A stretch of 64,000 bases of DNA from an uncultured Candidatus Berkelbacteria bacterium (GTDB taxonomy: Bacteria > Patescibacteriota > UBA1384 > 2-12-FULL-50-11): the NCBI GenBank assembly GCA_903839975.1, contig CAIMEH010000013.1, positions 15,999-79,998 of the forward strand. The letters run 5' to 3'. Under the pieces are notes generated by a model. It saw only the letters and a program-made list of their open reading frames with translations. It was not told the origin of the DNA and ran no database searches. Numbering within the stretch: position 1 is the first letter of the stretch; each line of letters opens with the position of its first letter. The position numbers were made by a program, and so were the translations under genes. Positions 32,029-35,255 of the stretch are shown here, piece by piece.

Positions 32029-32085
32029 AAAGTCACTATATGTAGCTATTTTATATTAACGTTATTATTAATATTCTCAGACACA

Positions 32086-32106
32086 AATATGACCGATAGG
32101 TCATAT
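32086..32106. repeat. palindrome copy 1: aatatgacc-gat-aggtcatatt, abutting the stop of the HTH gene
   Basis: Perfect 9-bp arms with a 3-bp spacer. Confidence 0.8.
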
Positions 32107-32108
32107 TG

Positions 32109-32435
32109 CTACTTGAGGGTAATATTCAGTTTTCTATCTAAAATATCTGCATATCTTTCCAGAAAATCTAACGATGGATTAAATTTTCCAGCCTCAAATT
32201 TAGAGACAACCGACTGATAGGTTTTTAATTTGTCGGCTAGCTGTTTTTGGGTCATTCTTTTTTGCAGCCTGGCGTTACGGAAACCGCCGATCACTAACTG
32301 TCGTTTCTCTGGTACTGCCATAGGCTCGGGTTTTGGCTTGATGTAGTGAGGATTGCGGACTTTTTTGTGGCGATATACCTTCTTTGGTCCACCGGTTGTA
32401 ATAATTATAAACTCATCAACGGTGTTTAATTCCAT
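32109..32435 (-). CDS. XRE-family helix-turn-helix transcriptional regulator
   Basis: C-terminal HTH_XRE region LQKRMTQKQLADKLKTYQSVVSKFEAGKFNPSLDFLERYADIL. An alternative start at the internal Met (MAVPEKRQL) is possible. Confidence 0.7.
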   Translation of the reverse strand: MELNTVDEFIIITTGGPKKVYRHKKVRNPHYIKPKPEPMAVPEKRQLVIGGFRNARLQKRMTQKQLADKLKTYQSVVSKFEAGKFNPSLDFLERYADILDRKLNITLK

Positions 32436-32439
32436 ACAC

Positions 32440-32465
32440 TAAATATGACCCGTAGGTCATATTTA
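32440..32465. repeat. palindrome copy 2: taaatatgacc-cgt-aggtcatattta, 5 bp upstream of the HTH start codon
   Basis: Perfect 11-bp arms. Confidence 0.8.
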
Positions 32466-32651: not shown

Positions 32652-33389
32652 GTGGAAGACGGAATTACCCCTATTCAAAAACAAGTTGATCATGCTGAAA
32701 ATATGATCGAGAGGACATTTTCAAACTATCCCGACGCCAAAAGGCTTCAAAGAGCCATGGGCAATGCCGACTGGAAAAAGCGCCTATGGGCGCTAGCAGA
32801 CGAGCTTGGCTTCGACCCAACCAAAATCTTGGAACGGGCTCGTTTCGAAGTTTATGGCAAGTTTCTGGGTTTTGATTGCCCAGACTTAACCCAGCTAGCT
32901 ATCCCAGCACCTAGGAATGGTTTCAATTGGATTCGTCCAATCGTAGCAATTCACGAAAAGGCCCCAAATGAAGCTGCCTTCCAGCAGCTAAAGAAGCAGT
33001 TTGGTGATAAGGCGTGGAAGTACACCGATAAGGTGCTTGACGAGGTGATAAAAGACAACGACCGTGACCCCCTTAAAAGCGGGCCTTACGTCATCCGAGC
33101 GCGCGACCGAGTTGAAGCTGACGAGGAGCTAAAAAACTTTTCAGCTAACCAACTGACTGAGCGCAAGATTGCTGGTAACACGCTCTATGAGCGACAGATA
33201 CTTGAAGCCTTTCACTATGTGGAAACCGGTGAACATTTAGACGTGGTGAATGTTACGCTCTGTTCAGGGTCACGTGGCTCCGACGGTAGCGTCCCGGACT
33301 ACTACTGGTACAACGGCGAGTTCAGGGTCCTTTGGTACTTTCCCGACGACCACAACGACAACTTGCGTGCCCGTGAGGTGGTTTCCTAA
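32652..33389 (+). CDS. DGR target (variable) protein. The C-terminal ~40 aa are encoded by the VR; the C-terminus is C-type-lectin/FGE-like, a frequent DGR-target architecture.
   Basis: The 3' 120 bp match the TR with A-specific substitutions. The C-terminal Y/W/N-rich segment (VPDYYWYNGEFRVLWYFPDDHNDNLRAREVVS) is typical of diversified CLec ligand-binding loops. Confidence 0.8.
   Translation: MEDGITPIQKQVDHAENMIERTFSNYPDAKRLQRAMGNADWKKRLWALADELGFDPTKILERARFEVYGKFLGFDCPDLTQLAIPAPRNGFNWIRPIVAIHEKAPNEAAFQQLKKQFGDKAWKYTDKVLDEVIKDNDRDPLKSGPYVIRARDRVEADEELKNFSANQLTERKIAGNTLYERQILEAFHYVETGEHLDVVNVTLCSGSRGSDGSVPDYYWYNGEFRVLWYFPDDHNDNLRAREVVS
33267..33386 (+). repeat. DGR variable region (VR)
   Basis: 120-bp homology to the TR. 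About 20 mismatches lie almost exclusively at TR adenine positions. The last ~35 bp are invariant and IMH-like. Confidence 0.85.
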
Positions 33390-33454: not shown

Positions 33455-33660
33455 GCTTTCTTTATGGCCAAAATTTTAATACTGTTGTTTTGGCTACAAA
33501 ACCGGTTCGTAGTTCGTTCGAATAGCGGTTTGCCAGCATTAGGAAACTACGTGCCAAGTTCAAAGAGGGTTGCTTCTACGCATGCCTCGTAATGCATCGC
33601 GAAAAGAAAATGTTTAATTTTCTGCTTATTTTGGCTCATACAGAAGGATAAGGCACATAA

Positions 33661-33780
33661 GGGTCACGTAACTCCAACGGTAACGTCCCGAACTGCAACT
33701 GGTACAACGACAAGTTCAGGGTCAATTGGTACAATCCCGACAACCACAACGACAACTTGCGTGCCCGTGAGATAGTCTCC
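33661..33780 (+). repeat. DGR template region (TR)
   Basis: Asn-codon (AAC)-rich when read in the VR frame (GSRNSNGNVPNCNWYNDKFRVNWYNPDNHNDNLRAREIVS). It is non-coding by itself. Confidence 0.85.
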
Positions 33781-33799
33781 GAAACGAACCCCGCTGTAT

Positions 33800-34186
33800 T
33801 TAGCGGGGTTCGTGATCTAATGATTTTATCCAACCGTTAGTCATCTGTGAGATTTCCTGAAGCTCTTGCGATACTAACACATAGTTTCTTGGCTTGATTA
33901 TTTTTAGCTCATAGCTAACTCTAATTAGCCTCTTCTCTAGCTCAACCTCTCTGCGTAATTTTTTAAGGTTAGGTAGCTTCTCTTGTTTGGGTAAAAAAGC
34001 CGCCTCTACAGCCAGTGTTAAGCTGTTTAAGCACGAGTTTTCGATCCTCGTAAATATTCCTAACTTGTCCCTCTTGGGTAGACTTGAGCTAAGGCTGTAA
34101 ATCTGTTTGTATAATTCAATAATCTTATGAACAACGGGAACATCGTTTGTGGAAAACTTTCCCGAGAGAGAGAGAGGGAGAGAGAG
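33800..34186 (-). CDS. avd: Avd-like accessory variability determinant (four-helix-bundle family). The open frame is 128 codons with no canonical start codon in frame.
   Basis: Translation ...VVHKIIELYKQIYSLSSSLPKRDKLGIFTRIENSCLNS...QELQEISQMTNGWIKSLDHEPR resembles Avd/bAvd proteins, including the C-terminal I.KMLNGLIKSL-type helix. The stop codon sits in the loop of hairpin 33786-33811. Confidence 0.6.
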   Translation of the reverse strand, partial: LSLPLSLSGKFSTNDVPVVHKIIELYKQIYSLSSSLPKRDKLGIFTRIENSCLNSLTLAVEAAFLPKQEKLPNLKKLRREVELEKRLIRVSYELKIIKPRNYVLVSQELQEISQMTNGWIKSLDHEPR

Positions 34187-35184
34187 CTAAAAGAGTCTTT
34201 TTCCATGAAGGTACTTTCGCAAAAATAATCTCTTTAGACAACCTATTCTTGGCATGGGCGAATTATTGTAAGGGCAAGAGGAGTAAAGATGATGTTCAGA
34301 AATTTGAATTTTCGCTAGAAGACAATATTTTCCAGCTTCATAACGAGTTGCTAGCGCACAAATACAGTCCAGGAAAATACCAACAATTTTTAATCACTGA
34401 CCCCAAAAAGCGAGTCATAAGCAAAGCACTGGTTCGCGATCGTTTGCTTCATCAAGCGATTTATCAGATTCTTTATCCGCTCTACGACAAAACTTTTATT
34501 TTTGATAGCTATTCATGTCGCAACGGTAAAGGAACGCACAAAGCATTTGCTCGGCTTGTTTCCATGACGCAAAAAGTCAGTCGCAGCTACACCGCACCTT
34601 GTTGGGCGTTGAAGATGGATATTAGAAGGTTTTTTGACAGTATCGACCACGAAACTTTGCTTGAGCTTCTTGGGCAAAGAATAAACGATGCTTACTTAAT
34701 GACGCTACTGGAAAATATTGTAAGAAGCTTTGAATTCAGCCCAGGCAAGGGTATGCCACTTGGAAATCTAACTAGTCAGCTTTTTGCCAATATCTACATG
34801 GATCCGTTAGATAAATTCTTAAAACACAAACTAAATGCTAAATACTATCTGCGCTACGCCGATGATTTTGCAGTTGTCTCGTCAGACCATGATGAATTAC
34901 TTGGGTATTTTATTGAGATAAATAGTTTTCTTAAAGAAAAACTAAAACTATCGTTCCATCCGAATAAAATTGGTCTCCGTAAATTAAGCTGGGGCATTGA
35001 TTTTGTCGGCTATGTGGCGTTACCGCACTATCAATTACCAAGAAATAAAACCGTAAAGCGAATATTGAAGAAAGTCGCAAAATCTTCCGAAGAGGAATTG
35101 TCAAAAACTTTGCCGTCGTACCTTGGCTATCTTAACCACGCTTCAAGCCACAAAGTTACTAAAAAAATAATGCCTTCTACCTAG
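34147..35184 (+). CDS. DGR reverse transcriptase; TTG start as in the ORF track, true N-terminus uncertain
   Basis: RT motifs: DGR-specific LGNLTSQLFANIY (I/LGxxxSQ in motif 4), catalytic YADD (YLRYADDFAV), and the motif 1/2 region (RVISKALVRDRLLHQAIY). Confidence 0.9.
   Translation: MWKTFPREREGERAKRVFFHEGTFAKIISLDNLFLAWANYCKGKRSKDDVQKFEFSLEDNIFQLHNELLAHKYSPGKYQQFLITDPKKRVISKALVRDRLLHQAIYQILYPLYDKTFIFDSYSCRNGKGTHKAFARLVSMTQKVSRSYTAPCWALKMDIRRFFDSIDHETLLELLGQRINDAYLMTLLENIVRSFEFSPGKGMPLGNLTSQLFANIYMDPLDKFLKHKLNAKYYLRYADDFAVVSSDHDELLGYFIEINSFLKEKLKLSFHPNKIGLRKLSWGIDFVGYVALPHYQLPRNKTVKRILKKVAKSSEEELSKTLPSYLGYLNHASSHKVTKKIMPST
34164..34186. repeat. (GA)n / (CT)n dinucleotide microsatellite at the divergent overlap of the RT and Avd N-termini
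   Basis: gagagagagagagggagagagag. Confidence 0.9.
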
Positions 35185-35221: not shown

Positions 35222-35255
35222 GGCATAAATATGACCTATAGGTCATATTTATGCC
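35222..35255. repeat. palindrome copy 3: ggcataaatatgacc-tat-ggtcatatttatgcc, lying between the RT stop and gltX
   Basis: Perfect 15-bp arms. It shares the core aaatatgacc/ggtcatattt with copies 1 and 2. Confidence 0.8.

Follow-up and report, generated by a model that had tools for sequence, protein, structure and literature searches.

A 64,000-nt stretch of DNA from an uncultured Candidatus Berkelbacteria bacterium (assembly GCA_903839975.1, contig CAIMEH010000013.1, positions 15,999 to 79,998 of the forward strand), hereafter termed the window, was found to carry a complete diversity-generating retroelement (DGR) of the Patescibacteria, or Candidate Phyla Radiation (CPR), in which the genes for Avd and the reverse transcriptase (RT) run head to head across a short GA-dinucleotide repeat. 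The repeat lies within the 5' coding overlap of both genes, and a change in the number of its units alters the reading frame of both. In the assembled sequence neither gene is in frame with its upstream ATG, yet loss of a single GA unit would repair the two together. Computational comparison with related loci established the anatomy of this junction, the conservation of a slippage-prone tract throughout the family, its polymorphism in length and purifying selection on both genes. On this basis we consider it probable that a single hypermutable tract switches the DGR on and off by slippage.

A first-pass annotation of the window had described an Avd-like frame on the minus strand between the template repeat (TR) and the RT gene, devoid of ATG, GTG or TTG before its conserved region, and this description held. 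The avd body frame (33800-34186, minus strand) consists of 127 sense codons and a TAA stop codon at 33800-33802; it is open from 34186 down to 33803 and, in the assembled phase of the tract, is closed upstream by a TAG at 34187-34189. No ATG, GTG or TTG precedes a GTG at codon 103, leaving the body without a canonical start, and the frame contributed no open reading frame (ORF) of at least 40 aa to the ORF listing. The avd start codon, an ATG at 34204-34206 (minus strand), opens MEKDSFSSLSLSLSRESFPQ... in another frame, 2 nt out of phase with the body, and is separated from it by the tract, as had also been annotated. The RT body frame as assembled (34147-35184, plus strand, 345 aa) was likewise confirmed to start only with a TTG, at 34147. 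The RT start codon ATG at 34127-34129 (plus strand) opens MNNGNIVCGKLS... (MNNGNIVCGKLSRERE...) in a different frame, again 2 nt out of phase with the body. Read from their ATGs, the two peptides begin MEKDSFSSLSLSLSGK (MEKDSFSS...) for Avd and MNNGNIVCGK for RT.

The tract itself, which spans 23 nt (34164-34186, strand-neutral) and reads as (CT)n on the avd strand, has the form (GA)6-GG-(GA)4-G, with one A>G interruption at 34177 (Tandem Repeats Finder: period 2, 11.5 copies, 90% matches). It lies 7 codons after the avd ATG and 12 codons after the RT ATG, and is the only dinucleotide repeat of at least five units in the window, where just one run of six C or G residues occurs. Taken modulo 3, the distance from the ATG at 34127 to the RT body is 2, and so is that from the ATG at 34206 to the avd body; as assembled, the window thus carries two extra nucleotides, with both bodies fully open. 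It follows that deletion of one GA unit, or the addition of 1 or 4 nt, restores RT MNNGNIVCGKLSREREGERAKRVFFHEG... and Avd MEKDSFSSLSLSLSGKFSTNDVPVVHK... at once. That one unit lost or two gained would fuse the ATG to the Avd frame had been recognized at first pass; the accompanying suggestion that the repeat toggles Avd understated the effect, since the RT ATG at 34127 has an equal frame offset and RT would be toggled too. The restored genes overlap head to head by approximately 78 nt, with the codons of the two strands in exact register and each ATG antisense to a histidine codon of the other gene. In the RT motif (L/F)FHEG (FFHEG in the window) it is the histidine codon whose reverse complement gives the avd ATG, and the histidine codon of V-H-K in Avd gives the RT ATG in the same way. 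Such a geometry, in which two start codons are hidden antisense to the other gene's histidine codons and one repeat is read on both strands, is unusual.

The identity of both genes was supported by profile and fold searches. The Pfam family bAvd (PF22296) matched the avd frame with E=6e-10 and 39.9 bits, against a gathering cut-off of 40, and precomputed annotation placed PF22296 in all 18 of the 18 closest avd homologues. Because a search of PDB sequences with the Avd profile returned zero matches, a fold search was needed. An AlphaFold model of the product (pLDDT, the model's per-residue confidence score, 86.9) contained four helices at residues 15-33, 44-64, 67-93 and 99-124, and Foldseek aligned it to Bordetella Avd (8ub7 chains B-E, and 4dwl) with template modelling (TM) scores of 0.74-0.88 and a root-mean-square deviation of ~2 Å. 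The minus-strand frame 33803-34186 is accordingly predicted to encode an Avd four-helix bundle, and in the model the tract-encoded residues form a disordered N-terminal tail ahead of helix 1, which begins at residue 15. The RT body, which is identical to database protein P0019, matched Pfam RVT_1 (E=5e-25) and carries LGNLTSQ, a match to the DGR-type criterion [I/L/V]GxxxSQ; its homologues numbered 4,559 at E<1e-60, many of them from Patescibacteria.

An Avd-based scan of metagenome and genome collections retrieved 133 loci, nearly all of them assigned to Patescibacteria/CPR groups or to unclassified bacteria. Together with three loci fetched earlier and the window, and where the Avd match reached the N-terminal end, these gave an analysed set of 135 loci, 127 of which contained both genes. 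The divergent orientation of avd relative to RT, which had been annotated as atypical, was present in 127 of 127 and is the norm of this family, with a distance of 38-163 nt (median 56) between the conserved cores. A homopolymer of C or G residues, 6-12 nt long and read as poly-C from the avd strand, occupied the junction in 120 of 126 relatives. Runs of at least 8 C or G residues occurred 110 times in junctions and not once elsewhere in 608 kb of related loci. The GA tract of the window is homologous in position to this poly-C/G tract of some 120 relatives, although Avd of the window is only 41-53% identical to that of the tract-bearing lineages. In nearly all loci the tract is flanked on either side by one ATG, usually the sole candidate there, whose frame stays open as far as the tract and whose register matches that of the window, and in approximately 95% of loci these ATG-to-tract segments have been kept open. 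Both registered ATGs were assignable in 109 loci, and in every one of these the frame offset of avd equals that of RT, with 22 loci in frame, 59 at +1 and 28 at +2. The equality of the offsets follows from the registered geometry, and the non-trivial result is that this geometry is conserved in nearly every locus.

Both genes were in frame in the five tract-free loci and in two loci with a C6 tract (L066 and L075), from which the upstream ATGs can be recognized as the native start codons. The remaining C6 locus, L016, was at +1. The equivalent of the window's avd ATG is in frame in 22 tract-bearing relatives as well as in all five tract-free relatives, and of the possible frames of the window only that of ATG 34127 gives the (D/N)NG(D/N)...CGK(L/I/T)S N-terminus seen in tract-free relatives and in the in-frame relatives P0027, P0033 and P0139.

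The comparison of related avd/RT junctions, called for by the first-pass annotation, also revealed that the conserved tract varies in length between near-identical genomes. Tract length varied within eight clusters of loci, mostly drawn from different metagenomes, whose 1-kb flanks are 98-100% identical (C7/C8/C9, of which C8 is in frame; C9/C10 twice; C11/C12 twice; C7/C8; C6/C9; and C10/C11), and in most clusters it was the sole junction difference. Lineages with identical flanks differ in frame state. Some tracts in the collection are interrupted relative to their counterparts (L061 versus L098, and L071/L099 versus L075; C3TC5 versus C8 and C3AC2 versus C6), and single-substitution interruptions of this kind should make slippage slower and hold the tract, in part, in its present state. 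Separately, L010/L012 compared with L015/L017, and L040 with L043, share 99-100% identical 1-kb junction flanks and identical Avd, whilst their RTs are only 79-94% identical, the distal part of the RT gene differing sharply; this could reflect recombination between strains or chimeric assemblies.

A further search based on RT provided closer relatives, at 68-73% identity, among which the dinucleotide form of the tract recurs. Locus L139 has a G9 tract with both genes at +1, whereas L140 has (GA)5.5 at the homologous position, also with both genes at +1. In L142 the tract is (GA)9.5 (19 nt), with avd and the conserved RT ATG at +1, and in L143 it is (GA)13.5 (27 nt), with both N-termini in frame. 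These last two loci belong to the same species and show 0 mismatches in 300+1500 nt of flank, whilst their tracts differ by 8 nt. The GA tracts of L140, L142 and L143 all correspond in position to that of the window. The dinucleotide tract is therefore common to a sub-lineage and is itself length-polymorphic. L142 (317-420) and L143 (2501-2600) also possess two upstream RT ATGs in two frames (MQLPIEF...CGKLS and MGSSPVENFP), such that two of the three tract phases yield an ATG-initiated full-length RT whilst avd is in frame in one only.

The out-of-frame loci bear few marks of degeneration. The avd body was intact in 99 of 100 of them and the RT body in 81 of 89, compared with 20 of 25 in-frame loci. 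For pairs in which both members were out of frame, the median ratio of nonsynonymous to synonymous substitution rates (dN/dS) was 0.135 for RT and 0.10 for Avd, values that indicate purifying selection on both genes in out-of-frame lineages. As a general explanation of the frameshifted junctions, pseudogenes were rejected on the integrity of the ORFs and these dN/dS ratios.

Under the proposed mechanism, replication slippage at the tract would alter its length and thereby offset the avd and RT bodies equally with respect to their start codons. A single mutation would in this way switch the two proteins jointly on or off, and with them mutagenic retrohoming, by a change that is both heritable and reversible. 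The window would be in the off phase, from which the loss of one GA unit or the gain of two would bring both genes back into frame. Three parts of this model are inferred, namely the slippage process, a bet-hedging benefit and the loss of protein whilst the phase is off. Extended to the whole clade, the tract would act as a heritable, stochastic master switch, whereby the off state locks in a useful variant whilst an on subpopulation continues to diversify, and the (GA)n repeat of the window would be a lineage-specific version; we regard this broader proposal as an evenly balanced one. The first-pass annotation had left three readings side by side, namely slipped-strand phase variation, non-canonical initiation and an assembly indel. 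The comparative evidence favours phase variation over the other two, because the position of the tract is conserved, near-identical loci differ in its length alone, tract-free loci are in frame, and the genes of out-of-frame loci are intact and under selection.

Several observations weigh against the switch. No near-identical second copy of the window junction was retrieved, and tract polymorphism is known from relatives: searches via ribosomal protein L19 and the helix-turn-helix (HTH) protein encoded near the DGR found only scaffolds of 730 nt and 595 nt (ERZ18625277) that do not reach the junction, and exact look-ups of the RT product retrieved no second copy. The interruption at 34177 leaves perfect runs of no more than 13 and 9 nt in the window tract, so its slippage rate should be lower. 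Out-of-frame junctions make up approximately 80% of the tract-bearing loci, and there is an excess of the +1 state, which accounts for 57% of 93 clusters (90% identity clustering; chi-square p=2e-5). A simple neutral switch does not predict this pattern, which could point to recoding instead. Across the L001-L136 junctions, where +1 took 48.6 of 86 clusters, the in-frame length closest to a given tract is in most cases C8 or C9 and the observed lengths peak at C9-C10. The excess of +1 may arise from an insertion bias, from selection for a state that is off but one deletion from on, or from expression that depends on a +1 frameshift. In most out-of-frame relatives a TTG or GTG stands in frame near the conserved histidine codon, from which some protein could be made without the ATG. 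Finally, the avd bodies of L142 (~150-290) and L143 (~2340-2470) are split by a 1-nt insertion unrelated to the GA tract (GACTTTGCT, as against the GACTTGCT expected from relatives), with RT intact; given this second frameshift, the tract polymorphism of this pair may be drift in a dying element.

The excess of +1 states would fit recoding, whereby RNA polymerase slippage or ribosomal frameshifting at the tract would restore the frame in a fraction of molecules, through quadruplet slips on CCC-C/GGG-G in the poly-C/G loci or a 2-nt slip on UCUCUC in the window, and out-of-frame alleles would still yield low, tuned amounts of Avd and RT. Homopolymers of 9-12 nt are classical slippery sequences, and the intact, selected genes of out-of-frame lineages are as recoding would have them. 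A programmed frameshift, however, normally fixes one frame relation across homologues, whereas here all three frame states occur (22/59/28) and lineages with identical flanks differ in state; in the window, moreover, the repeat is a dinucleotide and the shift would have to be -1 or +2, a recoding event that is uncommon. We therefore consider recoding as the explanation of the junction to be unlikely. Recoding and switching at the DNA level are nonetheless compatible rather than mutually exclusive, and the data leave room for leaky expression from the out-of-frame state by +1 ribosomal slips on CCC-C/GGG-G or by transcriptional slippage.

Were translation of the two genes to begin at non-canonical or internal codons, for instance at the ATT codons 22-23 of avd and at TTG 34147 of RT, the upstream ATGs and the phase of the tract would be irrelevant. 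This TTG is indeed in frame, an in-frame TTG, GTG or ATG lies close to the conserved avd histidine codon in 87 of 100 out-of-frame relatives, and such internal starts were used by gene callers. The avd body of the window, by contrast, offers none of these codons before codon 103, tract-free relatives always use the upstream ATGs, the ATG-to-tract segments have stayed open in almost all loci, and the frame of ATG 34127 matches the conserved RT N-terminus of in-frame relatives. Internal initiation consequently seems to us quite improbable as an account of the junction.

An error of sequencing or assembly, in which the true genome would be one GA unit shorter with both genes in frame and nothing regulated, is very doubtful. 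Repeats are error-prone during amplification by the polymerase chain reaction in library preparation and during assembly, a single unit would repair both genes, and some of the relatives come from long-read assemblies. A whole dinucleotide unit is, however, rarely miscalled by short reads, the difference between L142 and L143 amounts to 8 nt, and errors would not place some four-fifths of more than 100 loci out of frame whilst leaving every tract-free locus in frame. The same out-of-frame length also recurred in independent assemblies of one lineage (five with C9, three with C11), which argues against random sequencing error.

That the DGR is decaying, with the frameshift a first step of pseudogenization and the repeat a neutral microsatellite, would agree with the additional avd frameshift in L142/L143 and with the truncated RT bodies of several relatives, but is hardly credible given that both bodies of the window are fully open, that out-of-frame loci are no more decayed than in-frame loci and have dN/dS of ~0.1, and that the position of the tract is conserved across lineages so distant in Avd sequence.

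The remainder of the cassette conforms to a DGR, with the order target gene and variable repeat (VR), TR, avd (reversed) and RT being supported by ORF, repeat, Pfam and fold evidence. The target gene (32652-33389, plus strand, 245 aa), for which a Pfam search gave zero matches, ends in the variable region; the VR (33266-33389, plus strand) is placed at its 3' end. A 124-nt direct repeat relates the VR to the TR (33660-33783, plus strand, the same strand as RT); the copies are 85% identical, and 15 of the 18 mismatches between them fall at TR adenines. Directly 3' of the TR, and overlapping the avd stop codon, reading of the sequence identified a GC-rich hairpin GAACCCCGCT / AGCGGGGTTC (33786-33811, strand-neutral) with a 10-bp stem and a 6-nt loop, which could serve as the avd terminator, as a structural element of the TR RNA, or as both. 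In the same manner, a TATAAT hexamer was noted at 34110-34115 (plus strand), 11 nt upstream of the RT ATG at 34127, and is a possible -10 box that would give an RT mRNA with a short leader. The family consensus at the same distance from the RT ATG is TAAAAT, and both signals are confounded with the coding constraint of avd on the opposite strand. A consensus promoter scan that required a -35 element found nothing above shuffle expectation near the junction and did not report the hexamer at 34110-34115.

The window also contains three copies of a 24-nt perfect palindrome, AAATATGACCnnnGGTCATATTT, at 32085-32108, 32441-32464 and 35227-35250 (0 expected by chance). Between them they enclose an HTH_3/XRE-type gene (32109-32435, minus strand) and the entire DGR cassette. 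The middle copy (32441-32464), situated between the divergent starts of the HTH and target genes, may serve the HTH protein as an operator or be a scar of cassette insertion. L138, a short scaffold from another sample, terminates exactly at this middle copy. The palindromes were rejected as a feature of the DGR family, as the motif was missing from all related loci.

The phase of the tract appears to have left its mark on existing gene calls. Gene callers started avd or RT at internal TTG, GTG or Met codons (P0002-P0018, P0021, P0024, P0028 and P0034) and skipped avd entirely in L140 and L141, in each case because the tract is out of frame, and catalogues of DGRs probably under-annotate Avd in CPR genomes. 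The regulation of DGRs is largely unknown, and uncontrolled retrohoming would keep erasing useful variants. Should the proposed switch be correct, a fast mutational switch would control an engine of targeted hypermutation, providing a simple, built-in stochastic means of control for small-genome symbionts with few regulators, and the apparent inactivity of many environmental DGRs in surveys would be accounted for.

No description of a tract-borne DGR switch was found in the searchable literature on DGRs in combination with phase variation, homopolymers or CPR, a scope that does not take in the CPR DGRs of Paul et al. 2017. In term searches of the DGR surveys by Wu 2018 (PMC5758913) and Roux 2021 (PMC8144416), and of PMC11661182, neither homopolymers nor phase variation nor frameshifts of avd/RT came up. 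The parts are of known kinds, comprising a DGR, Avd and phase variation at simple repeats such as the CT repeats of Helicobacter pylori and the poly-G tracts of Campylobacter. What appears to be new is their combination, in which one tract, read on two strands within an antisense-registered head-to-head overlap, would control both genes of the DGR engine and is conserved throughout a large CPR clade.

The DGR of Bordetella phage BPP-1 (mtd-avd-TR-brt; bRT-Avd structures 4dwl and 8ub7) shares with that of the window an RT with LGNLTSQ, a TR/VR pair with adenine-specific differences and an Avd of the same four-helix fold (TM 0.74-0.88). The avd gene of BPP-1, however, is co-oriented and upstream of the TR, with neither gene overlap nor simple repeat, whereas that of the window lies between TR and RT on the opposite strand and overlaps RT head to head across a slippery tract.

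For the tract itself, the nearest likeness is found in contingency loci. The oipA, sabA and hopZ genes of Helicobacter pylori carry CT-dinucleotide repeats in their 5' coding regions, through which these outer-membrane genes are switched on and off by slipped-strand mispairing. The window resembles them in having a CT/GA repeat a few codons after an ATG, within a tolerant Ser/Leu stretch, where the number of units sets the frame; each H. pylori repeat, however, serves one surface-protein gene, whilst the tract of the window is read on two strands and serves two divergent genes of a mutagenesis machine. The homopolymeric form seen in the relatives is more akin to the poly-G/C loci of Campylobacter jejuni and Neisseria, in that G/C homopolymers of 8-12 nt lie in the 5' coding regions of A+T-rich genomes and are length-polymorphic between near-identical genomes. 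C. jejuni NCTC11168 alone has 29 loci with poly-G/C tracts of at least 7 nt (PMC4965091), and contingency loci have been reviewed (PMC11868660). The tracts of Campylobacter jejuni and Neisseria act on genes for surface structures or restriction-modification, in contrast to the DGR RT/Avd pair, for which one tract is shared by both strands.

Control of two divergent genes by one repeat also has a precedent. The divergent promoters of the fimbrial genes hifA and hifB of Haemophilus influenzae are separated by a (TA)n spacer. As proposed for the DGR junction, one simple repeat between divergent genes switches both; the hifA/hifB switch is transcriptional and operates through the spacing of the -10 and -35 elements, whereas the tract of the window lies inside both coding regions and would operate through the reading frame.

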